DNA from: Bacteroidaceae bacterium
Lineage (GTDB): Bacteria; Bacillota_I; Bacilli_A; RFN20; CAG-826
DNA: 64,000 nucleotides
Assembly (NCBI GenBank): GCA_963624045.1
Contig: CAVFNI010000008.1
Location: 3,054-67,053, forward strand
Direction of reading: 5' to 3'
Below are positions 2,632-23,895 of the stretch, piece after piece. The number at the start of each line of letters is the position of its first letter. The first letter of the stretch is position 1. The notes under the pieces are model-generated. The model searched no databases. It saw nothing but the letters and a program-made list of their open reading frames with translations, and was not told the origin of the DNA. A program made the translations under genes and the position numbers.

Positions 2632-2635
2632 AAAA

Positions 2636-3814: not shown

Positions 3815-3820
3815 CGGTCG

Positions 3821-4627: not shown

Positions 4628-4630
4628 ATT

Positions 4631-5554: not shown

Positions 5555-7652
5555 CTTTCACCACCTCCATAGCAGATTCCTTTCCTTCAAAACTCTCTTT
5601 TTTGGAGTTCGGAATCTCAATTGTATATGTCTTAGTAACGGTCGCGTATTCCAAAAGCATCGCCCTAAATGGCGTTTTAAAAAACACTCTGATGTGCATG
5701 TATTTATCATCGTTTATAATGATGTTTTTTAGCACGTTTTCAGAAATGTCCGTTAAACACTCCCCTGTATTTAAATCTATGGCCCCCTCAATCGATGGGA
5801 GATTGTTGTTTTCCTTGCTCTGTTCATCAACCGCAGCGATATGGAGATCTATCTTCTTAAATGAAGCGCTGCCGATTCTCCCTATTATCTCCACTTCTTT
5901 AGCGTATGGAGCATGGATGTCGCGAAAAGTTGCTGAAACATTTAAAGTTTTGTCATAAGTTATGAGGCGTTTCCCGTCGCTACTAGAATTTTCTGCATCT
6001 TTCGCCGTCTCGCGTTCATGATCCCAGTTGTGTTCATGGTTAGGATCATGGTTCCATTCTTCTGCTTTCAAACCGCCACCTTCGAAACTATCGGGATCGT
6101 CCCTTTTTGAATCCCTTTTGCGGATGCCGCTTTTTTTCTTTTTGACGCTCTGAGCAGGTTCTTCAACGACTTTCATCAATGGTTCTGTTCCAGTTCCGTA
6201 ATCACCGCTAATTTTTATGTCTTCCTCAAGAGATATGAAGTTTGTAAGTCCCGCAAGTTCAATATCGGTTTCTGAAGAATCAAATTGTCCAAATTGTTTG
6301 AGATGTCCGCTTACCCAATTTTCCAAATTTTCAATGGTCTTTTTAACGCTCAATCGGCTTTCTCCCAACGAAGAAAAATCATATTCCGTATGATTGCCCG
6401 CTTCGGCTCTAAGCAATAGTTCATTGCCAGGTTCTCCTTCAATTACAAGAACACCGGCTACAGGTCTTTGGGTTTTAACGTTTTTCGAAATGGTTCGCAT
6501 TCCAAAAGAACGATAAATAGACCATTGTCGGACAGTAACATCTTTGCTTTTGTTTAAATAAAGCGTAACGGGGCCAACACCTTCCATGCCATCTTCGTGA
6601 ATTTGACTAAAATCGTCGCCGCCTTTCGCTCCTTTATACGTCTCTAACAATGTTTTAGCCTCTTCAACAACGTTACTCAATTCAGCCGATCCGTCTCTAG
6701 ACGCTAATTTGTCTATAATCTTAGGGGCGTTTTCGTCAATTCTTATTTCTCCGCAATTTTCGGCTTTAATGGTGAGAGCAATTTTCTTTTCCAAAAATGC
6801 GACAAAAAAGTTCTTAATGGCATAGGCGGCCATGAGAAAAGGCCATTCTTCGTTATCAAATTTAGCGTTCTCGTCTGTGCCAAGGATAATGACGTCCGTC
6901 CCCTTTTGATCTCTCTTAAACAAGCCTTTACCAGCTGACGCAACTTCGTCAAAACTAATTGGCATTAAAGAATCAAAATCGTTGCAATCCAGAATGTTGT
7001 CGAGCGATTCACCATAAGAAACAAGACGGCCGTTCATTCTTTCGATGTGCCCGTCAACTTTGCTGGAAGCCAATCTTGAGCTGCCCGCTAAACCATAGCC
7101 TTCATCGGTTCTAGTAACGTAGATAACAGAAGAAAGGCCACTAAAAGGGAACGTTGCGTTTTTGCCAACCCCAACCCCGCCGCCAGAGCTAGAATCAGGT
7201 TTATCAGACGTGCCCTCCTGAAACAATAATTTCCAAAATGCCTTTTCGCCGTCGTATTTTTCAATGCCAGGGATACCTTTCGTATTAAAATCGGAAAACT
7301 TAAAATATCGCAAATAATCTTTCTCCAATAATTTTAATTGGCTTTTTGATTTGCTGATAATTCGCTCGTTTTTGCTATTTTCACCTTGGGCGAAATCGAT
7401 TGTTCCTTGGATGTGTTTGCGAAGATCGTCCAAACACAAAGCGTCATAAATGGAAGTGTTTGGAACTTTACCTTCTTCGGCGACCATTTCAACGGTAACA
7501 TTCCCATCATGAGCGTCGCGTGAATTTTGAATAAGTTCACGGATTAGAATCTCAATTCCAAGGGCGCCACTAAGCATGGCTGGATTGGCCGTAAGAATTT
7601 TTTCGGGGGAATTTTCTTTCCAAAATAGCCATCCCTTCTTTTTTTCCGACAT
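5538..7652 (-). CDS. GHKL (Bergerat-fold) ATPase, MORC/sacsin-like N-terminal domain
   Basis: N-box RELIQNSRDA (ExxxNxxD), G1-like SDFNTKGIPG, G2 GGGVGVGKNATF. The start was re-set to the ATG at 7652, which lies 8 nt after GGGAGG; an ATGA overlap with the upstream stop occurs at 7658-7655. The track's N-terminal extension to 7790 overlaps the upstream gene. Confidence 0.75.
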   Translation of the reverse strand: MSEKKKGWLFWKENSPEKILTANPAMLSGALGIEILIRELIQNSRDAHDGNVTVEMVAEEGKVPNTSIYDALCLDDLRKHIQGTIDFAQGENSKNERIISKSKSQLKLLEKDYLRYFKFSDFNTKGIPGIEKYDGEKAFWKLLFQEGTSDKPDSSSGGGVGVGKNATFPFSGLSSVIYVTRTDEGYGLAGSSRLASSKVDGHIERMNGRLVSYGESLDNILDCNDFDSLMPISFDEVASAGKGLFKRDQKGTDVIILGTDENAKFDNEEWPFLMAAYAIKNFFVAFLEKKIALTIKAENCGEIRIDENAPKIIDKLASRDGSAELSNVVEEAKTLLETYKGAKGGDDFSQIHEDGMEGVGPVTLYLNKSKDVTVRQWSIYRSFGMRTISKNVKTQRPVAGVLVIEGEPGNELLLRAEAGNHTEYDFSSLGESRLSVKKTIENLENWVSGHLKQFGQFDSSETDIELAGLTNFISLEEDIKISGDYGTGTEPLMKVVEEPAQSVKKKKSGIRKRDSKRDDPDSFEGGGLKAEEWNHDPNHEHNWDHERETAKDAENSSSDGKRLITYDKTLNVSATFRDIHAPYAKEVEIIGRIGSASFKKIDLHIAAVDEQSKENNNLPSIEGAIDLNTGECLTDISENVLKNIIINDDKYMHIRVFFKTPFRAMLLEYATVTKTYTIEIPNSKKESFEGKESAMEVVKDESAD

Positions 7653-7654
7653 TT

Positions 7655-8662
7655 TCATTTCCTCCCGAATATTTTGTATAAAGGTGGTCTCAGGTCTTTT
7701 TTTGACGGACCGTCTGAATAGAATTTCTCTTCCACCGCATTGAAGGTATAGCCAAAAATACCAGCGGCATGGAGCCCTTTCATAGCGCAATCTTTTTTCG
7801 CCGATAATTCGATATCGCCGTATGCGTTTTCTGGTACCACCCCCACTAGAACGATATGAAATATATCTCTAAGCAAAAGCGGTCTACCATTCGCGGCGGC
7901 TACGTTATTTTTTATTCTCTCAATGGCCGTTTCAGTAATTCTTATATCGGCAATGGACCAAACTTGATACGAATCCCATAAAATCAAATCGCCAAATCTC
8001 CTCTTTTTCAGTCGATTCTTGACATCTTCGATAGACAACGCATATTTGCCAGCAATGATATTGATGTTAAAAGGTTTGTGCCCATTTTCATCAAGAAGAA
8101 GTTTGTTCATCGCCTCCATGCTAGGATCATATCCGTGAGCCGCAATATAGCCGTTTGCATATATCAGTTTGGAAGTTTCGAACGCCCTTAATAAATTAGA
8201 TAAATTCGATATCGACGCCTCTTTCAATTCATTCTCCAGTTTATGCTTCAAAAAAGATTCAGGAAGAATTTTATGTACGTCCACCATTTCTAAAATCTTC
8301 TTTTTTATTTCTTCTAGTTTTTGCGTTCTCGACAACGGTTTCGGCATCGATAGCCTATCAGTATAATCATCGTTCTCTCCAACCGTTTCATCTTTACAAA
8401 CGCCAAAAGCAGCCAACGAACTCAACAGAAAACTTTTTTTAACTAACGTAGTTTTTGGAGCGATGACATTCATCACGAGCATAATCTCTCCCATCGGAAT
8501 CTTTAACTGCTTGACAATAATTCTGCTCAACGTAAGAGCGGCATATTCGTCAACCTCCAAATAATTCATTTGCTCAAGAGCGGCCTCAAGCACCACTTTG
8601 CAGAAACTGGGATTGGTTAAAATATGCTTGCCTTCTATTTCTGATGAAACGAACATTCCCAT
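7655..8662 (-). CDS. hypothetical protein (member of the GHKL cassette)
   Basis: The ORF was trimmed to the ATG at 8662 (MGMFVSSEIEG...). This start lies 1 nt after the stop of the 77-aa gene and is preceded by GGAGGAG. No motif recognised. Confidence 0.55.
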   Translation of the reverse strand: MGMFVSSEIEGKHILTNPSFCKVVLEAALEQMNYLEVDEYAALTLSRIIVKQLKIPMGEIMLVMNVIAPKTTLVKKSFLLSSLAAFGVCKDETVGENDDYTDRLSMPKPLSRTQKLEEIKKKILEMVDVHKILPESFLKHKLENELKEASISNLSNLLRAFETSKLIYANGYIAAHGYDPSMEAMNKLLLDENGHKPFNINIIAGKYALSIEDVKNRLKKRRFGDLILWDSYQVWSIADIRITETAIERIKNNVAAANGRPLLLRDIFHIVLVGVVPENAYGDIELSAKKDCAMKGLHAAGIFGYTFNAVEEKFYSDGPSKKDLRPPLYKIFGRK

Positions 8663-8663
8663 T

Positions 8664-8897
8664 TCAGTCGTCTCCTCCAAATTTAAATGGTTTGACGCGA
8701 CTATCTTTTGGGGAAAAAGCCGTTTTTGTATCGCGGACAGCTTCATCAATGGCTCTAAGCATTTGCGCCGCCTCTTCTTGGGTATACGCATAATTATTTT
8801 TGTTTGCGCAGTTAGCCAATAAACGAAGATCTTTAATGATTCTATTTGTTCTTGCCGCCGCTATTTTATGAAACCTTGCGTGCTTATCTTTGTCCAT
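8664..8897 (-). CDS. small helical protein, first gene of the cassette (possible regulator)
   Basis: 77-aa ORF directly downstream (minus sense) of an A+T-rich putative promoter region at 8898-9120. It is translationally coupled to the next gene. Confidence 0.45.
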   Translation of the reverse strand: MDKDKHARFHKIAAARTNRIIKDLRLLANCANKNNYAYTQEEAAQMLRAIDEAVRDTKTAFSPKDSRVKPFKFGGDD

Positions 8898-9611: not shown

Positions 9612-10574
9612 TTAGAACCTCGTTTTATAAAAAACAACGCCCTTCCCCTTCCCGTTCACGTAATTTCTCAATTTATAAATGTCTTGCTTAATAATATCTT
9701 GATAAGTCATGTGTTTATTGTTGTATCGGATAGAGCTTTTGATCCTCTTATAGAACCCTTCAATAAGTTTCGTCCTCACCTCTTGGGAAAAGTCTTCACC
9801 ACGCTTAAAATTCTCTGGCTTCAGAGTTCTATCGTGTATTAAATTCACCACCACTTTCTCTATGGTGATGGGCTTGTAAATGTCGGCCATATCGAGTTGC
9901 AAGGTATATTTCCTGTCGTTACTGGAATGATTATATCCAACGGAAGGGTTCAGCCCGCATTCCACGATGTAAGATAATATTTCGTTATAAAGCACGCCGT
10001 TTAGGAAGGTTATTATCTTATTTACGGGATCCGTTGGCCGATAAGCTCGTCTATATAAGAGACGAAAGCCGTATTGCGCCAATAGGCAATCGATATATTC
10101 GTAATATCTTTTGATGGCCAACGCCTCGTTAAGCATTATGAAATTGGCCGTCACGGCCGCTTGAACCTTTCTCCTTTTGTCTTTGAAGTATTTTAAATCG
10201 ACCCCCAAAGAACGATAAGCGAGCAACGAATACGATAGATTGTTGATTTCGGCATCGACTATTTGTTTGGCAATGTATAGCCTAACGTCCTCATCCAAAT
10301 AGCATCTAACCTGATTCACTAACGTATTTCCTCGATAATTATTATTGTTGAGCAATTCCATGTATTCTTTTGTTATGCGGTTATACAAAAACAAATTGAT
10401 CCCACGTTTCTTCAATTCCTTTAGAACGTCGCAGGATACGCTGATATCAGAAAAGGCGTAGATATTGGATATCACTTCTATCGGATATGTTTTAAGCGGG
10501 CTGTCGATTTCTTGAAAAGACAAGGTTTCGTCTTTGATCCTGAGCGAGCCTTCCTTCATCAACATCAGATTCAT
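9612..10574 (-). CDS. cas1: CRISPR-associated endonuclease Cas1
   Basis: 320 aa with the Cas1 core pattern: NEALAIKRYYEY (Glu), RPTDPVNKIITFLNGVLY, GLNPSVGYNHSS (His), LQLDMADIYKP (Asp). It overlaps cas2 by 4 nt. Confidence 0.85.
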   Translation of the reverse strand: MNLMLMKEGSLRIKDETLSFQEIDSPLKTYPIEVISNIYAFSDISVSCDVLKELKKRGINLFLYNRITKEYMELLNNNNYRGNTLVNQVRCYLDEDVRLYIAKQIVDAEINNLSYSLLAYRSLGVDLKYFKDKRRKVQAAVTANFIMLNEALAIKRYYEYIDCLLAQYGFRLLYRRAYRPTDPVNKIITFLNGVLYNEILSYIVECGLNPSVGYNHSSNDRKYTLQLDMADIYKPITIEKVVVNLIHDRTLKPENFKRGEDFSQEVRTKLIEGFYKRIKSSIRYNNKHMTYQDIIKQDIYKLRNYVNGKGKGVVFYKTRF

Positions 10575-10831
10575 AGCAGCATATTCTCTTCTAAATCGTT
10601 TCTTCCATACACCTCTCTAGAACCATACGGAAGCTTATCCAAAAAATAACAAATGATGGAATCTTCTTCCTTTATAGAGGATTCCAATTGAGCAATCATC
10701 TCACGATATTTAGATTCGCATATCTTGACTTCAAAAACCGATTCCTGAACCTGCACCATGTATTTCTTACATATCTTAAACACCTTCTTAACTCGACTTG
10801 AATCCACATCGTAAATCAACAAAACACGCAT
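10571..10831 (-). CDS. cas2: CRISPR-associated endoribonuclease Cas2
   Basis: The start was trimmed to MRVLLIYDV, the typical Cas2 N-terminus with the catalytic Asp. About 86 aa, immediately upstream of cas1. Confidence 0.8.
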   Translation of the reverse strand: MRVLLIYDVDSSRVKKVFKICKKYMVQVQESVFEVKICESKYREMIAQLESSIKEEDSIICYFLDKLPYGSREVYGRNDLEENMLL

Positions 10832-10891
10832 GAATCTAATCCTAATCTTCCTTAGCACATTTCGAAGGAAATTAACTGTTTTGCTGTTCAA

Positions 10892-11055: not shown

Positions 11056-11940
11056 ATCCTTAAGGTACCTAGAAGGAATTGAAACGACGGCGATGCCGTC
11101 GTCCTTCTCATTGAGCGTCTTCATCCTTAAGGTACCTAGAAGGAATTGAAACATGAGGGTTTCAACCGACGTTCCTCCATTGACTTATCCTTAAGGTACC
11201 TAGAAGGAATTGAAACCAATTTCGGAAGCGTCAAACTCAATAGTAATCACTTGATCCTTAAGGTACCTAGAAGGAATTGAAACAATGCCGCATTCAGCGG
11301 CTCTGTTTCGCGATATCCGGATCCTTAAGGTACCTAGAAGGAATTGAAACGAAGAGAAAGCTGACAATTAAGTCGGCTATTTCTTATCCTTAAGGTACCT
11401 AGAAGGAATTGAAACGAAGTACCGACGCGGGGACGCGCTGTGCGGGGACGTATCCTTAAGGTACCTAGAAGGAATTGAAACCGCTCGGTGCATTTGCAAA
11501 CGGCGCCAGTTATAAATCCTTAAGGTACCTAGAAGGAATTGAAACCCCTCTTTGTCCGTCTTGAAAAGGTTGATGACACCATCCTTAAGGTACCTAGAAG
11601 GAATTGAAACCATTTCTAAGGGTCTCAATTTCGGAAGCGTCAAACTCATCCTTAAGGTACCTAGAAGGAATTGAAACTAGCCCCGCAGCTAAACATTCAG
11701 CTAAAATTTTGTATCCTTAAGGTACCTAGAAGGAATTGAAACAATACTGGCACCAGCAGCAGCGGCACAAGCGATTCCATCCTTAAGGTACCTAGAAGGA
11801 ATTGAAACATCGTGCCTTGCCCTTTTTGGGTGGCTTGTGGAACGCATCCTTAAGGTACCTAGAAGGAATTGAAACAAAGCCAAGCAAACAAACTTTTCTT
11901 TTTCATCTTTATCCTTAAGGTACCTAGAAGGAATTGAAAC
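11056..11940 (+). CRISPR. CRISPR array, 14 identical 30-nt repeats and 13 spacers (34-37 nt)
   Basis: The repeat is ATCCTTAAGGTACCTAGAAGGAATTGAAAC. Repeats start at 11056, 11123, 11187, 11254, 11321, 11386, 11452, 11516, 11581, 11648, 11713, 11779, 11846 and 11911. The plus orientation is proposed because the repeat ends in ATTGAAAC, the canonical 8-nt Cas6 5' handle, preceded by a CCTT...AAGG stem. Confidence 0.95.
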
Positions 11941-12520: not shown

Positions 12521-15277
12521 TCAGTCTTCATCGAATCTAATATGCAAGCCGTTCCTTATGCGCTCATATTTGCCAAGGACGGCACGATATTCTTTTTTTA
12601 TCGGCTCATCTAGCATTAATAATTTCTCAATGGCATCGACATCGATATCGACATCTTCTTTCCGCTCACCACATCTCAATGCGTTATGTTTTAATTCGCT
12701 GATTCGTTGCCAAAGTTCATCGTTACCCAAAATGGCGCGGTAATAATCGTTCTTTTCTTTATCTCCGACGTCTTTAAGCGACAAAACGTAATTCACCGAG
12801 CGCACAAAGCTGTATTTTCTGTTGTAATAATCGTGATAGCTCTGATTGTTGGCGGATTCCTTGAGGTTTTCTATCTCACCGATGTATTTGCCATATCTGC
12901 TTTTTATCGTATCTATCGAGCGTTCTTTTTGAAGTTTCTCCCATTCATTTTCATCGCCTATAACTTCAGACAATCTTTCCCCCAATATCGTTTCGAAGCA
13001 GACGTCCATCTCGCGCAGAGCGCTCTCGTATTCTTTATAACGTATTAGATAATAAGCTTTGATCAATTTCCTAACGACACTACCATCTTTATTGTTGCTC
13101 AGTTTATTTATGTTCTCTTTTATTTCTCCTTCTAGTTCAATTCCATTATGAACGAAATCGTCGTAAAAGGCGTTTTGGACCAAAAACAATCGCCCAATCG
13201 CCTTCTTGATATCGTCTTTTTCGATAAAGTCCAACAAAGTGTCCCCCGTCTGCGGCGCAGGAATGTGTCCATTTTCTTCATGCCCGCCACCACCATTGCC
13301 TTCCGTGTGCACAGAAGCTTTCGTATCTATGCCGGCCTTCCCGTCTCTAACGTTTATGACCTTTATTCTGTCGGGATAGCACAAAGACATGAATGTCATG
13401 GCCATTTTGCAATTGGGGATCCCCGATGATTCGATCAAATATATGACGTCGTACTTATCCAATAAGGCGTTGACGAGATTGGCGATGTATTTGGAACACG
13501 TTTTGTAATCGTAGGAACTCGATTCGCCTTTCAAAGAGGCCGCCGATACCAAATCTTCTTCGTTTAAAATCGTTTTTCCATCGATGATCTCCCTTGCTTT
13601 GGAAGCACCGTTTTCTTCCAGTTCTTCATTGAAAGGAAGGAAGTATATCTCTTCGGTTCCATAAATCCGTTTCATGGTATCGACGTCATAATGTAGGTCT
13701 TTGAATAAAACGGCGACGATTTCGTTCGACAAAATGCAATAAAAAGGGATTTTCTTCTTTGCGTTTTTCTTTTGCAAATTGACCAATTCTTTTTTCTCGG
13801 AAGGGATCTGCGTGTCTTTCCCGATCGCCATGAAGAACGATAACGTCGATCCTGGGATAAGGCTTTGGCTTTCCTTGCTAAAACGCGCCGGGTCGGTTGA
13901 GCCAAGCATTGACAAAAAGCAAATTTTATTCGTCTTCTCATTGAATTTTATGCTCGTCTTTAAATTCTTTTTGATATCGGAACCGCACATGTCGATAACT
14001 TTGTCGAAGCAAAGGTCAAATCCGCTAGTTTTGTATTCTGATGGAACGCAATCCATGAATTCCTTTTCGAATTTTCGCGTTAGCTGATCTAGGAGTTTTT
14101 TGAAATCGCCGTCCGTAAAGAGGTTACCTTTATGATGACCAGGGTGCCTGAGGTAATTGTATTTTTTGTTAAATCCATTTATTAGGCAATCGTCGATTCC
14201 CTCGATTGGATCGTATTTGTTATTTTTGGCTCCGCTTTCTAAGCCATAATTTTGCTCAAATTCAAGATATATATCCGCTTTGCTGGAATTTTTATAATTG
14301 CGGCCATCTATTTGTATGTGCTTATCATGTTCGAGATTGCGCAAGACAAACAGCAATTTGTCGCAAATGACATAAGCGATCTTCGTATCCAGATTGCCCG
14401 CTTCATCTTTGGCTTTGAGGTTAATAAGCCTGAACATGAAATATTCGGCGATCTCTTCTTTTGAAAGCCGTCCCAAGCCCTTCAACGACAGCGAATCCGT
14501 TTCGTTGGCAAACGCTTTACGCATTTTCGAAGCGGCGTTATTGGGCTCAAATATGTTTCGGTGATTAAGATAATGATAATATGCCGAAAAATAACGCTTT
14601 TCATCGAGCAAACAAGAAATGATTTTTTTATGGCAGTCCAAAACCATCGTATCCATATCGGATTTCACCGCCACCCTGCCAACGACCTCGTCCACGCTTT
14701 GCGCATCCCCGGCGAATTCCTGCCAGCTTTTGCATAATTCGGCAAATTCGGCGGCGTCCTTGTCTGTTTTGTGGCTAAAGCCGCTTTTATTCTCAATGGA
14801 TTGACTGAAAAAGAGTTTTTCTTTGTTGCTCGTGCTATAAAGGATCATCAGGGCCTCCTTCGATTGGACGTTTCCACTTTGGAAATTGAAATAAAGGACA
14901 TCGGCCTTCGATTTGCTAAGGAATTCGTCAAATTTATCATAATAATCGGAAACGCTTATCTGCCTATCTTTTGGCCAATCCAAGAATTCGATTCTTATCT
15001 TATTCTTAATGCCTTCTATCTCTTCTCCTCTCTTCTCGAATCTTAATTTCAGGAGATTTAAGACCTCATCGACTTTGGCCCAAAAAAATTCTTCTTTTTT
15101 CTCTTTTGTGACTTCGTTTTTTTCGCTCGCTCCATAAAGAAGAAAAATGCTGTTGATCCGATAGCAGTCGTTATCGATTATCGAGGCGATAAGCTTAAAG
15201 AAAACCGGTTCTTTGTTCTTTCCTTGCATCACGTCGGCGTTGGAAAACATTCCTAATAGATCCACGCTTTTAGACAT
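12521..15277 (-). CDS. large type III-associated protein with two CARF-like modules and HEPN-like motif candidates
   Basis: 918 aa, starting 3 nt after the cas6 stop; it is the last gene of the effector operon. Module 1 has IFLLYGAS (residues 44-51) and NFQSGNVQSKEALM (131-144). Module 2 has ICFLSMLGSTDP (452-463) and IESSGIPNCKMAMT (615-628). These resemble the CARF GxS/T loop and the TGGTKxM-like loop. R-x4-6-H candidates are RHPGHH (377-382) and RIRNGLH (906-912). Confidence 0.5.
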   Translation of the reverse strand: MSKSVDLLGMFSNADVMQGKNKEPVFFKLIASIIDNDCYRINSIFLLYGASEKNEVTKEKKEEFFWAKVDEVLNLLKLRFEKRGEEIEGIKNKIRIEFLDWPKDRQISVSDYYDKFDEFLSKSKADVLYFNFQSGNVQSKEALMILYSTSNKEKLFFSQSIENKSGFSHKTDKDAAEFAELCKSWQEFAGDAQSVDEVVGRVAVKSDMDTMVLDCHKKIISCLLDEKRYFSAYYHYLNHRNIFEPNNAASKMRKAFANETDSLSLKGLGRLSKEEIAEYFMFRLINLKAKDEAGNLDTKIAYVICDKLLFVLRNLEHDKHIQIDGRNYKNSSKADIYLEFEQNYGLESGAKNNKYDPIEGIDDCLINGFNKKYNYLRHPGHHKGNLFTDGDFKKLLDQLTRKFEKEFMDCVPSEYKTSGFDLCFDKVIDMCGSDIKKNLKTSIKFNEKTNKICFLSMLGSTDPARFSKESQSLIPGSTLSFFMAIGKDTQIPSEKKELVNLQKKNAKKKIPFYCILSNEIVAVLFKDLHYDVDTMKRIYGTEEIYFLPFNEELEENGASKAREIIDGKTILNEEDLVSAASLKGESSSYDYKTCSKYIANLVNALLDKYDVIYLIESSGIPNCKMAMTFMSLCYPDRIKVINVRDGKAGIDTKASVHTEGNGGGGHEENGHIPAPQTGDTLLDFIEKDDIKKAIGRLFLVQNAFYDDFVHNGIELEGEIKENINKLSNNKDGSVVRKLIKAYYLIRYKEYESALREMDVCFETILGERLSEVIGDENEWEKLQKERSIDTIKSRYGKYIGEIENLKESANNQSYHDYYNRKYSFVRSVNYVLSLKDVGDKEKNDYYRAILGNDELWQRISELKHNALRCGERKEDVDIDVDAIEKLLMLDEPIKKEYRAVLGKYERIRNGLHIRFDED

Positions 15278-15280
15278 TTG

Positions 15281-16003
15281 TTATTCCTTTTCTAACACTT
15301 CAAAAAATCCGAATCCTTGCGAATTTTTGTCGCCTAACCCGACATCCGACAAGAAAATAAGCTGGTCCTTTGAGCACATCAGCGAGAACTTGGACATATA
15401 TCCGGTAATCGAAAAATCCTTATATAAGGTTCTAACTTCCCGAATTCTGCCTACCGAAGCGATGCGAATATCATCGGCGGCTATTTTTCCGCCATAAAGG
15501 CTAGCCTTATGCTTGAAATTGTTGTTGATTGCCTGAACGAATTCGTCAGTATCAGGCTTTAAATATATCGTTTTGTTCTTGCCATCGACGCTCTCGGTTT
15601 TATGGACGGTCACGGGGGATAGCATTTTTATGAGGTATCGCCGTTTTTCCTCTATAACGATTTCGCCTAGCTCAATGTCGTCTATGACGATCTTTTGCTT
15701 CATGAGAAAGAAATTGCTTTTGTTCTTGAGACAATTGGCCATGATATTCATCAGCAAACGGTTATTCGTAGAAGCCACCGAAAAAGAGACGCCCGACGAA
15801 AACGTGATGATCTTGTTCTTGTTGTCCAGAAGATATTCGCCGTTTAATTGCGAGAAAACAAACGATTTGATATCCGAACTGTTGTGTAGGTTTTTGGCCG
15901 CCTCCCCTATCATCTTATAAATTAACGCCTGTAAGCAGTGATGATATGATAACGGCAACACCAATATGTTCTGTTCGGCGTGAAAGGTTATCTTGATTCT
16001 CAT
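15281..16003 (-). CDS. cas6: CRISPR repeat endoribonuclease Cas6
   Basis: 240 aa. The N-terminus (LPLSYHHCLQALIYKMI) and the C-terminal glycine-rich loop (GLGDKNSQGFGFFEV) are typical of Cas6. Confidence 0.8.
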   Translation of the reverse strand: MRIKITFHAEQNILVLPLSYHHCLQALIYKMIGEAAKNLHNSSDIKSFVFSQLNGEYLLDNKNKIITFSSGVSFSVASTNNRLLMNIMANCLKNKSNFFLMKQKIVIDDIELGEIVIEEKRRYLIKMLSPVTVHKTESVDGKNKTIYLKPDTDEFVQAINNNFKHKASLYGGKIAADDIRIASVGRIREVRTLYKDFSITGYMSKFSLMCSKDQLIFLSDVGLGDKNSQGFGFFEVLEKE

Positions 16004-16007
16004 AAAG

Positions 16008-17831
16008 TTACTTGTTTCTCTTGTTGACCTTCAGTTTCAATCTTTCTTTGACGTCTTCCGCTTTGCATTGCTTCGCTAGCAAAGGAAGTGATTGCCTTTT
16101 GTTTTGTTTATACATGTCGGAGGATAAATTGTTGGTGAACCATGCGTATCCATTATCGTCGTTTTCGGCGTATGGATAACATATTTTCTCCTTTTCGAAG
16201 GAGAGGTCGGACATGACGCTCAATTGTTTCTCTTGCGATGAAAGGGGATCGAAGGCCTTATTTGCCAACGTCTCGTCATTAACCTCCTCATAAAAGATTT
16301 TTCCGTCTTTCTTGGTTATTTCCCTACGCACGACCTTTTCGACTTTCATAAAAACGCTGCCGAAACCAACTGGTTTAGCGTATCCGATTTTATGACCGTA
16401 TTTATCCTCGCCGTTTTTATTATATAGGTTGACGCACTTCAATAATTGTTCCAACTGCTCCTCTGTGATTTCGTCGAAATAGATTTTGAAACTGAACGTC
16501 AGGTCTTTCTTTATAGGGTGGATGGTAACATTCAAATTGGAAGGGATATCATTCTCTTTCAAATCGCTTTGAGAATGGAAATACATTTTGCGCCCTCGAA
16601 TGCATATAGCGCCATCATATGACCAATTGTCTAATTCGTGATTGTCATTGTTCTTCGAACCATAAAACAGCGCATTGCTAGGATGCGGTGACAATAGTGG
16701 CTTCAGCGTATGCCATTCCAAATAACAATCGTCGGGACTAGTGTCGGTCATCGCGTCGGTGATCCTAATCCGACTCGAATGGGCGCTGTTGTTATCTTTA
16801 TTGATAAACCCGAACAATTGGCATGTTGGACATGATTCGTGGATATCCGAGCAGGAAAAGTATCCGCGCTTTTTCAAAATGCTTTTAAGCGTGTTTGGCG
16901 ACATATACTTTCCTATATAAGCGGGAGATATCATCTTGAACCCATTTTCTTTACAGATAAATGCGATGATCGGCTTATGGCCTAAGAACCTCTCTTTTAA
17001 TTCTTTGTACCCAGAATGTCTTTTGTTTTTAAGATGATGGTTTATCCTTTCGTCGGAATATTCCTCAAGGACGTTTTTAAAACAGAGAACCTCCTCTTTC
17101 GTCAAAGGCTCGCCATCATCGGATCTATCTTCTAGTACATACAATTTCTTGGATATTTTATTATCAAACTTTACGCCGATTCGATAATATGCCAGATTCC
17201 TATTGCTAACATCATCGATTGTTAAATTCTCATCGTCTACTAACCCATAATTGGAGTCGTAAAAACAATTGCTTTCCATTCTCGAGGCATGGTCGCGATC
17301 GACTCTGTCGCCTTCGGCCTTGTAACATATGTATTCTTGTTTTTCGTCGTTCCAGAAAATGAAATGCGGCTCAAAGGACTTGCGGTCCGGATTGTTCTTC
17401 TTTGATGCAGGCAAATTCCTTTTGGCAAACGTCCTATCTAGATCAATCAGACCTCCGAAACAAGAATCGTTTTGAATCTCATGAATCGTCCGTAACAAAC
17501 CTCTGATTTCGCTTCCAGGGATCACCGGAGAATAACACGTTCCGTCATCTGTTTTGCCGCTTAAATCGGCGTAAGAATAAAAATCGTATGTCTTATGCCC
17601 GGGCGTCGGATCGCTTAGATAATTCGTATTCGTTGTGTTGGGGATAAAGATGGGCGATCTCGTCTTCAAAGACACGGATAAATATCCGGTTAGGTTACCT
17701 TCTTTAAAATCGCTCCTTTCGAATTTGGAGGGAAAGGAAACAAAATTATAAGGATTTATGAATTCTTCGTTCGTTTGATCATGGCTATATGCCCGATTTC
17801 CATTATTTCTATTTTTGCCATGCATGCCCAT
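16008..17831 (-). CDS. type III RAMP subunit, Cas7 with a large insertion (III-Dv 'Cas7-insertion'-like)
   Basis: N-terminal FINPYNFVSF, RAMP motif PGSEIRGLLRTI, and a zinc-knuckle-like CSDIHESCPTCQLFGF typical of Csm3/Cmr4-type Cas7. The start was trimmed to the ATG at 17831, 4 nt after the upstream stop. Confidence 0.6.
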   Translation of the reverse strand: MGMHGKNRNNGNRAYSHDQTNEEFINPYNFVSFPSKFERSDFKEGNLTGYLSVSLKTRSPIFIPNTTNTNYLSDPTPGHKTYDFYSYADLSGKTDDGTCYSPVIPGSEIRGLLRTIHEIQNDSCFGGLIDLDRTFAKRNLPASKKNNPDRKSFEPHFIFWNDEKQEYICYKAEGDRVDRDHASRMESNCFYDSNYGLVDDENLTIDDVSNRNLAYYRIGVKFDNKISKKLYVLEDRSDDGEPLTKEEVLCFKNVLEEYSDERINHHLKNKRHSGYKELKERFLGHKPIIAFICKENGFKMISPAYIGKYMSPNTLKSILKKRGYFSCSDIHESCPTCQLFGFINKDNNSAHSSRIRITDAMTDTSPDDCYLEWHTLKPLLSPHPSNALFYGSKNNDNHELDNWSYDGAICIRGRKMYFHSQSDLKENDIPSNLNVTIHPIKKDLTFSFKIYFDEITEEQLEQLLKCVNLYNKNGEDKYGHKIGYAKPVGFGSVFMKVEKVVRREITKKDGKIFYEEVNDETLANKAFDPLSSQEKQLSVMSDLSFEKEKICYPYAENDDNGYAWFTNNLSSDMYKQNKRQSLPLLAKQCKAEDVKERLKLKVNKRNK

Positions 17832-17835
17832 ATCA

Positions 17836-18354
17836 CTAGCCCCTTTCCTTATAAGAATCGAAACCCATAAACCTTGCGTATCTAACAAACGGGAAATCGT
17901 TCTTGTCGTAATCGATATAATTGACGACTTTCAAGGTAATTCCCTTATTCACATCCCCTTGAGCGAATTTTTTAGGGATGACAACACTCTTTTTGCCTTG
18001 GGTCAATTTCGTATAAGATTCCGCGCATTCAGTTGTTTTGCCATCGGACAAAACGAACATATCTTCTTCGATTTTGTCTAGATGCAATTTGTCGATATCG
18101 TCTTGTTTTACAACATCGATGCCATCTTCTCGGTCTAAGTTTATTTGCACGTCCTCATTAAACGCATACCCTTCTAAGAACAAGGAGTCATCTTTAGGAA
18201 GTTCGCTTTCTTTATCCGTGTAAGCGAGGATTCCATCTTTGCTTATCTTCCCAGTGTAGACGTTAGTGACGTACATGAATATAAAATACACATCGTTCTT
18301 AAAATCGTAATTTATGGCATCTAACGCTTCTCTTATGCTCGCAACGACATTCAT
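17836..18354 (-). CDS. small type III subunit, Csx19-like by size and position
   Basis: 172 aa. It overlaps the Cas7-2x gene by 4 nt and occupies the slot Csx19 holds in described III-Dv operons. I recognise no diagnostic motif. Confidence 0.35.
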   Translation of the reverse strand: MNVVASIREALDAINYDFKNDVYFIFMYVTNVYTGKISKDGILAYTDKESELPKDDSLFLEGYAFNEDVQINLDREDGIDVVKQDDIDKLHLDKIEEDMFVLSDGKTTECAESYTKLTQGKKSVVIPKKFAQGDVNKGITLKVVNYIDYDKNDFPFVRYARFMGFDSYKERG

Positions 18355-19703
18355 ATCTGATTAACCTCCCCCGATAGCATATCCACATAATCATTGTTGT
18401 TGATGTCGATTGCCACGCCGTTCACCTTTATCGGATCCTCTCCAAGCATTATTCCATATCCTATGGCAGCGCTGCCGCCAAGAGGGCAATAGCCTTTTTG
18501 CAAATCTGTCAAGGCCAATAGCAATAGGCCGATGTGCGGATACAAATCGATGTCGTTGCCGATATCGGCGTTAATAGCGAAAGACAACGTGAATTCGCCG
18601 TCTTTATCGACGTATATCCTTTGAGTGAACAAATGGCCATCTAAACTAGAACCGGTGAATCTGTCGATCGAATTCCTGGTTGCGACGATGAAACGGCCGT
18701 TTTCTAGATATATTTCATCCGTTTTGATTTTGGATTGCGAAGCATTATTTCCGCTCACTTCCCCAAAAAGCGTATTCAAATCTAACGAGGATATCCCCAA
18801 TTCCTTCTTGATTCTCTCCATTTGATGGCGAATGGCTCCGATAATCGAAGTTCCTGGAATCACGGCTTCTAGTTTTCCGTTATTATCGCAACTAAGCTGC
18901 GTGAAATCGAAATCGTCCTTCAGGTTATCGGAATAGCTCCTAATCGATAACGGGGTGACGAGTTTTATTTTGCATTCGATCAAAGCCTTCCTTTTATCTA
19001 GGAAGTCGACGTCCTTGTATTCTATTTGTCTTAGGCTCTCATCGCTAAGGCTTAACCAATCCTTTAGGCTATCGCCGAAAAAATATCCTCCGGTTAAATT
19101 ATCGATTCCGACATTCCCAAAGCCCCTGCTTTTCTTAAATCCCAAAGACAGGAGATGCTTATCAAAGCCTTTGGCAATGATTTTGATTTGATGCTCAATT
19201 TCCTTTAGGTTCTCTTCCAAGGAATCCTCGGTCAGTTTTTCTCCTAAGTAATCATGGTATTTTTCCCTTATCGTGTATTCGACGACGAATCGGAAATTAG
19301 CGCCTTTTTGGATGATTTCGTAATCATATTTTGCGGTATTCTTAGGCGTTTTTTCGAAAATGCCGTTTTCGTCGTACCCTTTGATTGCAACGCCATCGCG
19401 CGACGATGTTTTGATTTTTGTTTTATCGCGAAAAACCCCATCGGAAACGCTAAACGGCGAAGAGAAAAAATCATTGCTCTCGACATCCAAGGAAAACAAA
19501 GAAACGTTCTTGCCGAAATATTCGTTGCAAAACGATCGGATAGGGCCGGCGATGGAAGTGCCGGGAATAAAAAGCTCGCCATCAACCGTCCTTAGCACAT
19601 CATGGTCGGTGTATTCGCTTTCGGAACCGCCAATAGAAAGCGGGGATTCAAGCCGCATGTCGAAGATGTATTTCCCTTTGGCTATTATTCTTTCGTGATT
19701 CAT
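18351..19703 (-). CDS. tandem Cas7 fusion (Cas7-2x)
   Basis: Two RAMP units in 450 aa. Unit 1 has LSIGGSESEYTDHDVLRTVDGELFIPGTSIAGPIRS and the G-loop KKSRGFGNVG. Unit 2 has LVTPLSIRS...LEAVIPGTSIIGAIRHQ and the G-loop PLGGSAAIGYG. Confidence 0.7.
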   Translation of the reverse strand: MNHERIIAKGKYIFDMRLESPLSIGGSESEYTDHDVLRTVDGELFIPGTSIAGPIRSFCNEYFGKNVSLFSLDVESNDFFSSPFSVSDGVFRDKTKIKTSSRDGVAIKGYDENGIFEKTPKNTAKYDYEIIQKGANFRFVVEYTIREKYHDYLGEKLTEDSLEENLKEIEHQIKIIAKGFDKHLLSLGFKKSRGFGNVGIDNLTGGYFFGDSLKDWLSLSDESLRQIEYKDVDFLDKRKALIECKIKLVTPLSIRSYSDNLKDDFDFTQLSCDNNGKLEAVIPGTSIIGAIRHQMERIKKELGISSLDLNTLFGEVSGNNASQSKIKTDEIYLENGRFIVATRNSIDRFTGSSLDGHLFTQRIYVDKDGEFTLSFAINADIGNDIDLYPHIGLLLLALTDLQKGYCPLGGSAAIGYGIMLGEDPIKVNGVAIDINNNDYVDMLSGEVNQI

Positions 19704-19723: not shown

Positions 19724-21676
19724 CTATTCCTTCGCGCTTCTTTTTTCATATTTCATCAACGTAAGCAATGTGAAGAAATAAGGCATGAACGCCCCTTCCC
19801 GATCAAAAGGGAATTTCTCTTCGTACCTCCTTACGATTTCTTTAGCGCCACTTCTTTTCTTATCGTCGGTTATCCCATCTATGTTTTTGACAAAATCGCC
19901 ATAACTGTCCACTTGCCTTAGCATCAAGAGCATCCTAGAAAGCAAACCGGGATCAATCTTTATGGATTTAGGGAATTCCTCAATGGCTTCTTTTTTGGCT
20001 TTTAGACCAACATCGAAAGCCGATAGCGAAGGAGAGGTCGAACCGCTATCGAGGTTCCGTATCTCCAATTTGATAATGCCTTTCTTATCGATCGGCACGA
20101 TTCTTAGCCGACCGAATCCTTCGGCGTTTCTCTTACCGACGTAAAGAACGCTTGGTATCCTTTTGCCATCGCTAGACTTCAATAGCACATACGATTCGGG
20201 GGCAATGGCATAGACCGTTGGCTTCCTTTTTTTCCAAACCATATTGAAGCCGGAGACGAGCTTTCGGGAAAGGCTATAGCAAGCGTCCGCGACCCCTAAT
20301 CCGCCACATTCCTTATTCAATGCGCTCATGAATAGATCCAAGTCAAGATTATCAATCTCCCCATCGACGTTCTTATGATTTAAGATGATCGGCGTTTCGA
20401 CGCACGCCAAATAATAATTCGCTTGTCGCGCTAATTCGGCTTCCCCATTTATTTCCGTGTACCTTGATTTTTTGTCCCCGCAAATTTCTAGCGTTCCATA
20501 TTGGGCGGTTCGCGATTTCCCGATGTGCAGATAGGTAAGATTCTCCAATAACGTCTTTAGATAACGGCCGCTCCCTTCGAGCGAGAATTTGAAATATTGT
20601 CCGCTCGCTATGGCTTTGTATTGGAAGAAGTTGGCCTCCTTGACCAAGCCCTTACCCATTTCGCCTTTATCCCTTTGATGATGATAATTGATTCTGAAAT
20701 CGACATCCTTTAACTCCAATTTTCCGCCGTCTAAATCAAAAGAGCCAAATTTGGATTTCAATGATTTGAATTTGACTATTTCCTCGCCGCCGTTTTGGAT
20801 GGCCTCGTTCCTCGCTAAGGCCAACCTATACAAATCGGTGTTTTTTCCCCTTTGGATGCACGAGGGCAACGGATAATACAAACGCCCATCGGCATCGGAA
20901 ATAAACCCAAAGGAAAAACGAACCCCATCATTATAGAAAATATCCATGAATACGGGGTCTTTTGTCGGATCGGCACAATTGGCGTTCTTAATGTATTGAT
21001 AGGCGAAGAATCCATATAGCGACGAACCAGGGATGACGCTTCCCGATATCTCGCTATTGGCTTCTGGGAGCAAGATATCGTTTAAGGACTTACAAAGGAT
21101 GTCGTATCGATATGTCTTAGAATCCGCCAATCGGCTTAAATCAAGACTTGTTTGGTTTCTCATCCCGTTTTTCAATTCCAGTTTGACTTCGCCAAATCCT
21201 CTATTCCTGTTTAATCCAATATGGGTTACCAAACTCAGAACTTTTTCTAAAACTTGCGTATCGATGCGATTCGCATTTATTTCCAATTCAAAGCTAAATT
21301 TCGTCCCTCTTTTAACGACCATCAGTGTTCTTAAGGAACCTCCGGAAGTCGTCCCAGTGTCATCGTCGATACGAATTTGGGTGCGATAATATGTGGGATC
21401 GGAAGCGCCTTCCTTCTCGATTTTAGCATCGCCCACATACATCGCTTCCCTCTCACCGTCTTCTTCGCCGAAAATCCCCTCCGATTCATCTTTTTGCCCG
21501 GTTATATCGACATAATCAAGGTAAGCTTGTAACAAAACCCCTTTTATCCTTTTGGCAGGTATATAAGGTAAACCGTCCCCATCTAAACAAACGTCGGTGT
21601 CGATCATCCTTCCCTTGGTGGAGCCATTAGAGGAACATAAATCAGATATCAAATTGATAGTAACCACATAATTCAT
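19724..21676 (-). CDS. multi-RAMP fusion, Cas7-Cas5-Cas11-like
   Basis: 650 aa. The first RAMP has IDTDVCLDGDGLPYIPAKRIKGVLLQ and the G-loop NRNRGFGEV. The second RAMP has SGSVIPGSSLYGFF and the G-loop GKRNAEGFGRLRI. A helical C-terminal tail of about 100 aa could be a fused small subunit. Confidence 0.55.
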   Translation of the reverse strand: MNYVVTINLISDLCSSNGSTKGRMIDTDVCLDGDGLPYIPAKRIKGVLLQAYLDYVDITGQKDESEGIFGEEDGEREAMYVGDAKIEKEGASDPTYYRTQIRIDDDTGTTSGGSLRTLMVVKRGTKFSFELEINANRIDTQVLEKVLSLVTHIGLNRNRGFGEVKLELKNGMRNQTSLDLSRLADSKTYRYDILCKSLNDILLPEANSEISGSVIPGSSLYGFFAYQYIKNANCADPTKDPVFMDIFYNDGVRFSFGFISDADGRLYYPLPSCIQRGKNTDLYRLALARNEAIQNGGEEIVKFKSLKSKFGSFDLDGGKLELKDVDFRINYHHQRDKGEMGKGLVKEANFFQYKAIASGQYFKFSLEGSGRYLKTLLENLTYLHIGKSRTAQYGTLEICGDKKSRYTEINGEAELARQANYYLACVETPIILNHKNVDGEIDNLDLDLFMSALNKECGGLGVADACYSLSRKLVSGFNMVWKKRKPTVYAIAPESYVLLKSSDGKRIPSVLYVGKRNAEGFGRLRIVPIDKKGIIKLEIRNLDSGSTSPSLSAFDVGLKAKKEAIEEFPKSIKIDPGLLSRMLLMLRQVDSYGDFVKNIDGITDDKKRSGAKEIVRRYEEKFPFDREGAFMPYFFTLLTLMKYEKRSAKE

Positions 21677-21679
21677 AAA

Positions 21680-23167
21680 TTATCTCCTCTCTTTTGAGAT
21701 GGGCCCGATGAAATCGATTAACGTCGAAGCGTCGTAATACGAAGCCTTCTCGTCTATAAATGGATCGTCTAATGGTTTTTTAAGTCTCGATGATATCTTC
21801 TTAAACAACATTTTGACGGCGTCTTCGCCTTTTTCGTAGCCGTTCCTTATTTGTTTGGCTTTACCATAAGACATTTTATTCAATTCATCGTTAAGTTCTT
21901 CCAAGCGCGCGTATAACGTTTCGCAATCATCGCATGCACCGATGTTCCTGTTGACGATATATGGCTTGCAATAAAGCCGCTTAAAACGCCTTTCATCCTC
22001 ATCGACCGTGGTCATGATTCCATTTTGGCAAATGTAATAATCAAAGGCACATCTAGACTGGCCTCCATTGTTGTTTTTGATCGCTTTGGATTTGGCCTTC
22101 TTTTTGGCCGATTCGCACAATTCCTCGGCGATTTCATATCCTCGGTCATATGGAAAATGGGCTTTCACGAAAGCGATGCCGACGCATGCCGATATCCTGA
22201 TATCGTTATCAAAGAAACTGTCGTTATTTACCTTTTCTAAAAATCCTTTGACCAATTCTATGGCGTAATCCTTCGAAAAAATCAGCGTGATGTCGTCGCC
22301 TGAATTGACGATGATGCGATAACGAAGGCTGTTTTTCTCGTGGCCATTTACGAATTCCCTCAGATAATCCATGAACGAATCGTTGTATTTCGCTTTGATT
22401 TTGTTGGAAATTTCCCGTGATAAAGTGACTTTTTCCTCATAACTCGCATCGCTATTTTTGCTTTTGAAAAAATTGCTGATGGCAATTCCCAAATCATTGG
22501 CGTCAATATGAATGATGGCGATATAGCTATCCACGTTCTTTTCAACAAAATCGTCAATCATAATGGCGCCGAGCGCACCACCTGAATCCTCATCGTATTT
22601 ATCCAATTTTAGCCTCGATTCCCTGGTGATTTTCCTTTTGCCATCGGTCCTTGACTTTTCCGACAAAGGCAAACTGGATTCGCTAGATGTCATGACGATA
22701 GGGAGCGCGCCTTGCAGATTACAGGTGGACGCCCTCATTTTCAGATTGCTCATCAAATTATCCAAATCGACCCTGTCCTTTGAAAAATCATCGGTAACCT
22801 TCACGTAGGCGTAAGAAACCCGTAAAGAATATGTCTCTTTTAAAAATAGCAAGCCGATCTTGCGATTGAATTTTTTGACTTTTTCCTCATCGCCCTTTAA
22901 AAAGCAGGACAGATTGCCACCGCCCTCATATCCAATTTGGAAATCCAAATTTTCATCGAACTTAAACGCATCACGACTGATGTTCTCAAATTCTTTTTCA
23001 ATGTTCTGCCTTAGTTTTAATTCATCGTCGCAGCACGCCTCAATCAAAAACCTCTTCAAGCAATCCCTAACCAAATTCGATGCACCGACGATTTCTTTTA
23101 TCTTCGAAGAACCATAGATGTATTTTTGAATTTGCCTTATCTCGTACTTTATTAAAAATCTTTGCAT
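21680..23167 (-). CDS. cas10: Cas10-like polymerase/cyclase subunit lacking an HD domain
   Basis: 495 aa. The sequence opens almost directly with the Cas10 palm-entry motif IRQIQKYIYGSSKIKEIVGASNLV, so there is no room for an N-terminal HD domain. It has the metal-binding IIHIDANDLG and the GGDD-equivalent VNSGDDITLIF. Confidence 0.7.
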   Translation of the reverse strand: MQRFLIKYEIRQIQKYIYGSSKIKEIVGASNLVRDCLKRFLIEACCDDELKLRQNIEKEFENISRDAFKFDENLDFQIGYEGGGNLSCFLKGDEEKVKKFNRKIGLLFLKETYSLRVSYAYVKVTDDFSKDRVDLDNLMSNLKMRASTCNLQGALPIVMTSSESSLPLSEKSRTDGKRKITRESRLKLDKYDEDSGGALGAIMIDDFVEKNVDSYIAIIHIDANDLGIAISNFFKSKNSDASYEEKVTLSREISNKIKAKYNDSFMDYLREFVNGHEKNSLRYRIIVNSGDDITLIFSKDYAIELVKGFLEKVNNDSFFDNDIRISACVGIAFVKAHFPYDRGYEIAEELCESAKKKAKSKAIKNNNGGQSRCAFDYYICQNGIMTTVDEDERRFKRLYCKPYIVNRNIGACDDCETLYARLEELNDELNKMSYGKAKQIRNGYEKGEDAVKMLFKKISSRLKKPLDDPFIDEKASYYDASTLIDFIGPISKERR

Positions 23168-23440: not shown

Positions 23441-23728
23441 CTACCGCTTAAGAGATAGAACATTAATTAAAGGATAGACTAGACCGCTTAAATCCTCGTC
23501 GCAAAATTGGTCTGCTGCTAGAAAACCATTCATCGATGCCTTGCATAAAGGAAAGGACGATTCTTTATCTGCCTGCGAGTATCGCAGTCGCAAATAAGAG
23601 GGCGGCTTATCCGTCTTGTTAGTAAATTCCAAAACATCGACCAAACGCAAAACCTTCTCTAAAGTCTCGCTTCGAAAGCCGTTTTCCTTGGCTAAAGATG
23701 CTATTTCGCGCTTTCGGTAATTAAACAT
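23441..23728 (-). pseudogene. N-terminal fragment of an AbiEii/AbiGii-type nucleotidyltransferase toxin
   Basis: The first 40 or so residues (REIASLAKENGFRSETLEKVLRLVDVLEF) resemble the conserved N-terminus of AbiEii-family toxins. The remainder does not, and the ORF is only 95 aa. The family call is from memory. Confidence 0.35.
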
Positions 23729-23895
23729 CCATCACTCTTTTTTGTATACTCCTCAATAACTTTATAGATGTAAATCTTCCGTTTGCGTCATATTTTAATC
23801 CATCGCTAGAAAACCAAGCCAAAATGAAACAATATGAGCAAACATACAGTAAAATGATGTTAAGAAGGCTTTTTACCAAAGCGGAAAGGATGTTT

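Follow-up and report, generated by a model that had tools for sequence, protein, structure and literature searches.

What kind of protein closes the type III CRISPR operon of a Bacteroidaceae bacterium (GenBank assembly GCA_963624045.1), and what does it do for the system? The window analysed here is a stretch of 64,000 nucleotides of contig CAVFNI010000008.1 (positions 3,054 to 67,053, forward strand; all coordinates below are those of the window). The gene in question lies on the minus strand at 12521-15277, starts with ATG, ends with a stop codon at 12521-12523 and encodes a protein of 918 amino acids. A first-pass annotation, made from the letters of the DNA, had placed this open reading frame (ORF) 3 nt past cas6, at the close of the effector operon, and the placement is confirmed on the minus strand, which the annotation had not named. 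It had also proposed a tandem chain in which each of two CARF modules is followed by a helical, possibly HEPN, region, and which acts as an intramolecular dimer that senses the messenger made by Cas10. The architecture and the role stand, on the basis of a structural model, of a match to the fused effector Csm6-2 and of Pfam Cas_Csm6_CARF matches in 11 of 15 family members; the catalytic motifs then put forward do not.

The answer that we favour, with a probability of about 0.65, is that the gene encodes the dedicated second-messenger sensor-effector of a type III-Dv system. One chain would correspond to a whole Csm6 homodimer, its domains running CARF1, 6H/HEPN1-like, CARF2, 6H/HEPN2-like. 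The protein is a very rare, highly diverged relative of fused Csm6 (Csm6-2). The architecture guessed in the first-pass annotation is present, yet it has already been characterised in Csm6-2.

Domain layout and fold of the 918-residue protein

The structure was predicted with AlphaFold2 (AF2). A run with four sequences was poor, with a score of 56.8 in the local distance difference test as AF2 predicts it (pLDDT). The model used here comes from a run with 15 sequences and has a pLDDT of 81.5 and a predicted template modelling (pTM) score of 0.81, the latter suggesting a compact single body. The predicted layout of the gene product is as follows.

12521-15277, minus strand: whole gene of the 918-residue single-chain Csm6-like (Csm6-2-like) effector, from the ORF list and translation, the AF2 model and Foldseek
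14798-15277, minus strand: module 1, CARF1 (residues 1-160), Rossmann-like and CARF-like, AF2 pLDDT about 90, assigned from its fold, its loop motifs and the full-length Csm6-2 alignment
13958-14764, minus strand: helical region 1 (residues 172-440), 6H-like bundle and HEPN1-like domain, carrying R201, R283 and H378
13343-13930, minus strand: module 2, CARF2 (residues 450-645), Csm6-type CARF, assigned from Cas_Csm6_CARF (11 of 15 members), PADLOC CARF_m5 and an AF2 beta-alpha-beta order (452-643)
13250-13342, minus strand: Gly-rich, poorly conserved linker (residues 646-676), disordered in the model at 647-669 (pLDDT below 50), of differing length among members
12524-13249, minus strand: helical region 2 (residues 677-918), 6H-like bundle and HEPN2-like domain, carrying E762, W856, K863 and H864

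In module 1, strands are predicted at residues 3-11, 39-48, 94-97, 127-131 and 153-157 and helices at 25-34, 58-93, 109-122 and 137-149, in alternation along the chain (strand 3-11, helix 25-34, strand 39-48, helix 58-93, and so on). The topology is Rossmann-like for both modules, as the first-pass annotation had anticipated, and residues of their CARF-style loops are invariant; the long helical region that it had placed after each module also agrees with the AF2 secondary structure. Each helical region begins with about six helices (AF2 residues 173-256 and 681-783) and continues with a helical bundle (273-437 and 789-910). In the first bundle, which has a poorly predicted insert at 331-362, the third helix runs up to R377-H378, ahead of two further helices. 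In the second, a long helix ends at K863-H864, again with two helices behind it. H378 and H864 are placed symmetrically, 62 and 54 residues ahead of the end of their respective halves, each closing a long helix. In this AF2 layout, the two halves are built alike, with invariant histidines at equivalent places.

A Foldseek search of the PDB with the full-length model gave as best match Csm6-2 of Actinomyces procaprae (9w3u_A, E 8.2e-8, probability 1.00, 1001 aligned columns). Seven chains of 6tug, the Csm6 of E. italicus, come second (best E 1.1e-5, probability 1.00), followed by 8pe3, the Csm6' of S. thermophilus (E 1.1e-3, probability 1.00). The eight matches at E <= 1e-3 all belong to the Csm6 family (probability 1.00). 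Ranks 9-18 are all taken by other CARF effectors, among them StCsm6' and then, more weakly, Csx1-Crn2, Can2, Cdn1 and Card1. The full-length alignments to Csm6-2 and Csm6 span the helical regions; among the further matches of the same model are Sso2081 (7ygl_B, TMt 0.43, probability 0.99) and Cam1 (8t65_A, probability 0.96), listed as CARF-only proteins. The poor four-sequence model already had Csm6' and Csm6-2 on top. The fold matches thus include solved CARF domains, and Csm6-2, with the same architecture and the best fold match, is a characterised accessory family of the sort that the first-pass annotation had listed as counting against its proposal. Against viral structures, Foldseek returned nothing significant.

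At the sequence level, the window protein has no match in Pfam and NCBIfam at E <= 0.01. Its alignment to Pfam Cas_Csm6_CARF (residues 591-649) reaches E 0.02 and 15 bits, for a cutoff of 27.5, and that to PADLOC CARF_m5 E 0.005. Within module 2, the 11 members that match Cas_Csm6_CARF all do so below the threshold, the best at 5.7e-6 and 26.4 bits. The Pfam Csm6 HEPN domain (PF09670) matches residues 786-836 of one member, P0002, a stretch homologous to part of helical region 2, with E 2.5e-4; the other 14 have no HEPN match. PADLOC Csx1/Csm6 models are found in two members (1.6e-6), besides single Csx1 and Csm6 matches, NCBIfam TIGR02672 (cas_csm6) in two and TIGR02710 in one. A SAVED reading was rejected, since no SAVED family appears in the Pfam, PADLOC and NCBIfam matches or among the top structural matches.

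Canonical Csm6 proteins are homodimers of chains of about 400-430 amino acids, with a symmetric cyclic hexa-adenylate (cA6) pocket and a conserved Rx4-6H motif. As in the canonical structures 6TUG and 8PE3, each half of the 918-residue protein is predicted to consist of a CARF, about six helices and a HEPN-like bundle. Unlike in canonical Csm6, the two halves are fused and asymmetric, and a conserved Rx4-6H is absent.

Csm6-2 of A. procaprae (WP_136192673; PDB 9W3U, 9W3V and 9W3W) is a fused CARF-HEPN-CARF-HEPN RNase (Hoikkala et al. 2024, PMC11229360; Shi et al. 2026, PMC13187428). Its RNase activity was described as cA6-dependent (PMC11229360); its structure is an intramolecular dimer that tetramerises, with selective activation by cyclic penta-adenylate (cA5) (PMC13187428). 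Like it, the 918-residue protein is a single chain in which a helical (HEPN-like) region comes after each of the two CARF modules, and it is likewise encoded in type III-D loci, as seen for the window operon and for all informative related loci. It differs in being about 120 residues longer and in having no HMMER-detectable sequence similarity to Csm6-2.

Can1 (6SCE), which the first-pass annotation had cited as a precedent, shares with the 918-residue protein two CARFs in one polypeptide, which in Can1 form one site for cyclic oligoadenylate (cOA). However, the effector part of Can1 consists of a nuclease-like domain and a PD-(D/E)xK DNA nuclease in place of helical HEPN-like bundles, and 6sce_A is matched only weakly (E 0.12, probability 0.63); Csm6-2 is the closer precedent. 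A Can1-like reading was rejected, the region after CARF2 being all-helical in the model, without a PD-(D/E)xK nuclease.

Conserved residues and proposed mechanism

Conservation was assessed in an alignment (A2) of 15 full-length members, 19-45% identical to the window protein. The N-terminus MKTIDxIG is kept across the family. Five residues of module 1 (S12, D15, N131, S134, G135) and eight of module 2 (G459, S460, T461, P463, S618, G619, P621, K624) are invariant. In both Rossmann modules they are grouped in two loops, one behind strand 1 and one behind strand 4, which are the canonical ligand-contact positions of CARF domains. The first-pass annotation had recognised CARF-style loops from the strings IFLLYGAS (44-51), NFQSGNVQSKEALM (131-144), ICFLSMLGSTDP (452-463) and IESSGIPNCKMAMT (615-628), all of which lie at these residues. 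On the pattern of conservation, the two loop pairs are more than a chance resemblance. The loops and the two candidate catalytic dyads map as follows.

15233-15244, minus strand: CARF1 loop after strand 1 (S12-N-A-D15), S12 and D15 in 15/15
14858-14887, minus strand: CARF1 loop after strand 4 (N131-FQSGNVQS-K140), which is predicted to touch the ligand, with N136, Q138 and S139 in at least 13 of 15 and K or R at position 140 in all 15
13889-13903, minus strand: CARF2 loop after strand 1 (G459-S-T-D-P463), position 462 being D or E
13406-13426, minus strand: CARF2 loop after strand 4 (S618-GIPNC-K624), S618, G619, P621 and K624 invariant
14144-14149, minus strand: R377-H378 dyad closing helix 363-377, with H378 (15/15) as candidate for the catalytic His of HEPN1; position 377 R in 13, K in one and S in one
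12686-12691, minus strand: K863-H864 dyad closing helix 839-865, with H864 as candidate for the catalytic His of HEPN2; both in 15/15

For the first of these loops and for the R377-H378 dyad, translation confirmed the coordinates. By analogy, K624 may correspond to the ring-centre lysine K533 of ApCsm6-2 (PMC13187428).

In the helical regions, R201, H378, E762, W856, K863 and H864 are invariant, and R283 is present in 14 of the 15 members. These are not the residues that the first-pass annotation had singled out. The strings that it quoted are all in place (RHPGHH 377-382, RIRNGLH 906-912, RNLEH 313-317, RNGLH 908-912), but H382, R906 and H912 vary freely among the 15 members, which removes R377/H382 and R906/H912 as catalytic pairs, and neither RNxxH string is conserved. 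The window protein has five Rx4-6H strings, versus 2.1 +/- 1.4 in shuffled sequences (P = 0.047), but they are not convincing, since none of the five is conserved. One of these, R858-x5-H864, resembles the canonical motif; R858 is found in the window protein only.

In Csm6-2, the Rx4-6H motif is present only in HEPN2, and HEPN1 has a split R...H pair (PMC11229360), R295...H369, whose members are about 73-74 residues apart (PMC11229360, PMC13187428). The catalytic residues are R295, H369, R723 and H730, and the HEPN site cleaves cOA (PMC13187428). The HEPN1 of the 918-residue protein likewise has no contiguous Rx4-6H, R283 and H378, a candidate split pair, being 95 residues apart, and such a non-contiguous arrangement is plausible because of the split pair of Csm6-2. 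HEPN2 differs: instead of a conserved R-x6-H, the 918-residue family has the invariant K-H, with no conserved Arg at -4 to -7 of H864. Sequence homology and the HEPN2 motif were both tested and neither was found; for this reason, the protein is not filed in the Csm6-2 family. Nevertheless, it most probably works like Csm6-2.

From these comparisons we infer a cOA ligand, an intramolecular pseudo-dimer geometry, an RNase activity and the roles of single residues in the following scheme. Binding of target RNA would activate the HD-less Cas10, which would then produce cOA. One messenger molecule would be held in a composite, asymmetric pocket formed by the CARF1 loops (S12/D15 and N131-S134-G135...K140) and the CARF2 loops (G459-S-T-D-P and S618-G619-x-P621...K624). 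Closure of the CARF pair would be relayed to the paired helical (HEPN-like) domains, where a composite site built around the invariant histidines H378 and H864, to which R377, K863 and probably R283 would add basic groups, would cleave RNA non-specifically. The messenger itself would probably be cut by the same composite site, in which case the response would limit itself.

Operon, family and surroundings

The 918-residue protein is encoded by the last gene of the effector operon: 3 nt separate the cas6 stop from its ATG, no further cas effector genes lie past it, and the CRISPR array comes next. On the opposite side, the CRISPR locus is bordered by phenylalanyl-tRNA synthetase genes. The other components are listed below.

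21680-23167, minus strand: HD-less Cas10 (Cas10d type) of 495 aa, PADLOC Cas10d 1.5e-90, intact cyclase motifs
19724-21676, minus strand: Cas7-Cas5(Csx10) fusion, N-terminal Csx7 match and Csx10 match at residues 444-526
18351-19703, minus strand: Cas7-2x with two RAMP/Cas7 domains, Pfam RAMPs 5.6e-26 in two stretches, Csx7 2e-21
17836-18354, minus strand: csx19, TIGR03984 1.1e-8, at its cutoff
16008-17888, minus strand: Cas7 with insertion (TIGR03986 RAMP), TIGR03986 2.6e-64, over its cutoff, also matching the C-terminal Cas7 of Cas7-11e
15281-16003, minus strand: cas6, 240 aa, Pfam Cas_Cas6_C 3.5e-26, TIGR01877 1.1e-29
11056-11940, plus strand: CRISPR array, 14 identical 30-nt repeats ending ATTGAAAC, spacers of 34-37 nt
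10571-10891, minus strand: cas2, Pfam CRISPR_Cas2 6.7e-18
9612-10574, minus strand: cas1, Pfam Cas_Cas1 1.8e-49

From its gene content (cas10, cas7-cas5, cas7-2x, csx19, cas7-insertion, cas6), the operon can be classified as type III-Dv-like (type III-D). Cas10 has the motifs GGGN (82-85), IHIDxNxxG (219-227) and SGDD (289-292), which are kept in orthologues down to 39% identity. SGDD stands where GGDD is expected, and the serine is kept in both orthologues compared. In the type III-Dv system of Synechocystis, Cas10 makes cOA that activates the CARF-HEPN RNase Csx1 (PMC11026444). The two systems share the HD-less Cas10 and the order Cas7-Cas5 fusion, Cas7-2x, Csx19, Cas7-insertion and Cas6; they differ in the effector, which in Synechocystis is a Csx1 of the ordinary dimeric kind and in the window a fused Csm6-like protein with its gene inside the operon. 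The locus also differs from the Csm6-2 loci of Actinomyces, which typically carry CorA and the ring nuclease Crn4 (PMC12830947): it is a III-Dv operon, with csx19 and fused Cas7 proteins, and has neither of the two. Scans with Pfam, NCBIfam and PADLOC revealed no recognisable Crn1-4 or Csx15/16/20 ring nuclease in the operon, and neither CorA nor SAM-AMP-degrading enzymes (SAM, S-adenosylmethionine) are present at the locus. A CorA/SAM-AMP-type pathway was ruled out as the primary reading on this last ground.

The family is very small. Scanned exhaustively with HMMER, 1.84 billion cluster representatives gave 18 proteins (10 of them at E < 1e-30), and a word-indexed search of 5.8 billion proteins gave three relatives, to which a rerun with alignments added none. 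All members come from metagenomes or metagenome-assembled genomes. Neither the effector nor Cas10, when used for pattern scans of GTDB genomes, led to a confirmed locus, and pattern scans of JGI metagenomes and tblastn against plasmids yielded nothing.

Every relative on a long enough contig directly adjoins the same type III-Dv-like operon, down to about 20% identity. The position in the operon varies. The effector gene is last, behind cas6, in the window and in loci L001 and L011/L012; it is first, ahead of cas10, in L007/L008 and L009/L010; it adjoins RAMP/csx19 genes in L013 and cas1/cas2 in L002 and L006. In the two most divergent relatives, P0016 (L007, 10001-13084) and P0015 (L009, 10001-12799), it immediately precedes cas10. 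Hence, the gene has shifted within the operon in these two cases yet has kept its linkage. Because the linkage outlasts a fall to about 20% identity and a changed operon position, it is strong evidence that the 918-residue protein works with this effector complex.

Several other features of the surroundings were recorded. The CRISPR repeat reads ATCCTTAAGGTACCTAGAAGGAATTGAAAC on the plus strand, and its orientation suggests that the array is transcribed against the direction of the cas genes. About 22 nt (caatttcggaagcgtcaaactc) are common to spacer 3 (from 11217) and spacer 9 (from 11611), so that the two derive from overlapping parts of one target. Between pheT and cas10, a 95-aa ORF within 23441-24152 (minus strand) matches only the first ~38 positions of an AbiEii toxin model (PADLOC 1.7e-7), and an unassigned 143-aa ORF stands just before it; together they look like the remnant of a toxin-antitoxin module beside the CRISPR operon. 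Beyond cas1, a defence island extends over 1606-7790 on the minus strand. In addition to the three genes listed below, it holds a 307-aa ORF without family assignment and a protein of 750 aa that matches the defence candidate PDC-M33A (7.8e-53) and, weakly, HATPase_c_3.

1606-2631, minus strand: HpaII-type C5 methyltransferase
2636-3814, minus strand: HpaII restriction enzyme
3821-4627, minus strand: DUF6339 protein

Immediately downstream of cas1, a 378-aa ORF at 7655-8791 (minus strand) runs into the predicted start of the PDC-M33A gene. It belongs to no assigned family, gave only a chance-level CARF3 match (E 0.011) and has no PDB relative. Finally, several copies of a 15-nt palindrome, ATACTCGTGAGTATA, lie at 28854-28981 between the divergent genes pheS (minus strand) and an ATPase_2/DUF234 gene (plus strand, 28995-30404). 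The cluster is operator-like. Rfam found nothing over the window, with no T-box or other RNA family at 28854-28981.

Alternative readings and significance

A number of results weigh against a single-chain Csm6-like effector that responds to cOA. The TM-scores of the model are low, 0.22/0.26 to 9w3u (root-mean-square deviation about 24 A) and 0.14/0.25-0.29 to 6tug. The match to Csm6-2 is thus one of domain folds and of their order; as a whole, the domains of the model are arranged in a way that fails to superpose on Csm6-2. A HMMER search of PDB sequences, including 9W3U-W and canonical Csm6, with the single sequence and four profiles (among them whole protein, CARF2 and helical region 2) gave only chance-level matches at E <= 10. 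All Pfam, NCBIfam and PADLOC matches are below curated thresholds and confined to the second half; CARF1 and HEPN1, in the first half, have no sequence-profile match at all. Internal duplication, sought by hhalign of the two halves, is not significant (E 0.3-0.7), the top alignments, equally not significant, being in register with RH378 on KH864 and the SG loops of the two CARFs on each other. A conserved Rx4-6H motif was sought in the 15 members and found in neither helical region, and five members have no such string. Lastly, the ligand is not certain, because the Cas10 proteins of related type III-D2 systems make SAM-AMP and SAM-AMP2, not cOA (PMC13294483).

There is also a more far-reaching proposal, which we regard as unlikely. 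The family would be an independent or extremely diverged single-chain Csm6 lineage of one III-Dv clade, with [R/K]-His dyads (R377-H378, K863-H864) and distal arginines in place of the Rx4-6H motif that is universal in HEPN, and with an asymmetric pocket for an odd or non-canonical messenger of the minimal HD-less Cas10 (cA5, cyclic tri-adenylate (cA3) or a SAM-AMP-like conjugate).

The missing motif is also the starting point of a reading in which the paired CARFs bind a messenger and the helical domains are not an RNase. The protein would then be a ring nuclease, a sponge or regulator that keeps signalling in check, or a scaffold or activator of another protein. The K-H of HEPN2 in the place of R...H and the five members without any Rx4-6H string fit this proposal, as does the absence of a recognisable separate ring nuclease from the operon, from which it follows that some turnover activity is needed; Csm6 and Csm6-2 proteins, for their part, degrade their own activators (PMC12830947, PMC13187428). 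However, H378, W856, K863 and H864 are invariant at about 20% identity, as expected of an active site rather than of a decayed one. Moreover, the 918-residue protein is the sole candidate effector in a system whose Cas10 lacks HD and has kept its cyclase motifs, and its closest folds are all active RNases. We consider a non-RNase role quite improbable.

Another possibility keeps the architecture and changes the ligand: instead of a canonical even-numbered cOA, the asymmetric pocket of CARF1 and CARF2 would read an odd or asymmetric product of the minimal Cas10d, for instance cA5, cA3 or a conjugate of the SAM-AMP type. The loops of CARF1 and CARF2 have diverged, and therefore the pocket cannot be twofold symmetric; the cA5 selectivity of ApCsm6-2 (PMC13187428) and the products of the type III-D2 Cas10 proteins (PMC13294483) are further points in its favour. 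On the other hand, the Synechocystis III-Dv system, with the same gene order, activates Csx1 via cOA (PMC11026444), SAM-AMP systems use CorA and degrading enzymes that are not present here, and CARF2 resembles the CARF of cA6-binding Csm6 proteins. A non-canonical ligand is, on balance, rather doubtful.

It is very improbable that the protein is neither CARF nor HEPN, but a lineage-specific Rossmann-plus-helical protein of crRNA (CRISPR RNA) maturation, complex assembly or adaptation with a generic similarity to Csm6: the sub-threshold profile matches, the TM-scores of 0.14-0.29 and the generic Rossmann enzymes lower in the Foldseek list would agree with this, but the leading structural matches are all to Csm6-family proteins and then to other CARF effectors, Pfam, NCBIfam and PADLOC independently point only to Csm6/Csx1, and the conserved residues lie at the CARF ligand loops.

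If the single-chain Csm6-like effector is an ordinary cA6-activated RNase, a known class simply gains one more rare member. As a family it is very rare, with a putative non-canonical active site and a predicted asymmetric ligand pocket. To our knowledge, Csm6-2 is the only known cA5-selective effector. Single-chain Csm6 enzymes that respond to new ligands could be put to practical use as orthogonal reporters in type III CRISPR diagnostics. Fused asymmetric CARF effectors let type III systems read messengers that are closed to a symmetric homodimer. A second lineage with the same architecture, unrelated in sequence, would, if its existence is borne out, show that this solution is recurrent, and it would serve as a natural experiment to tell which residues of the HEPN active site are indispensable.

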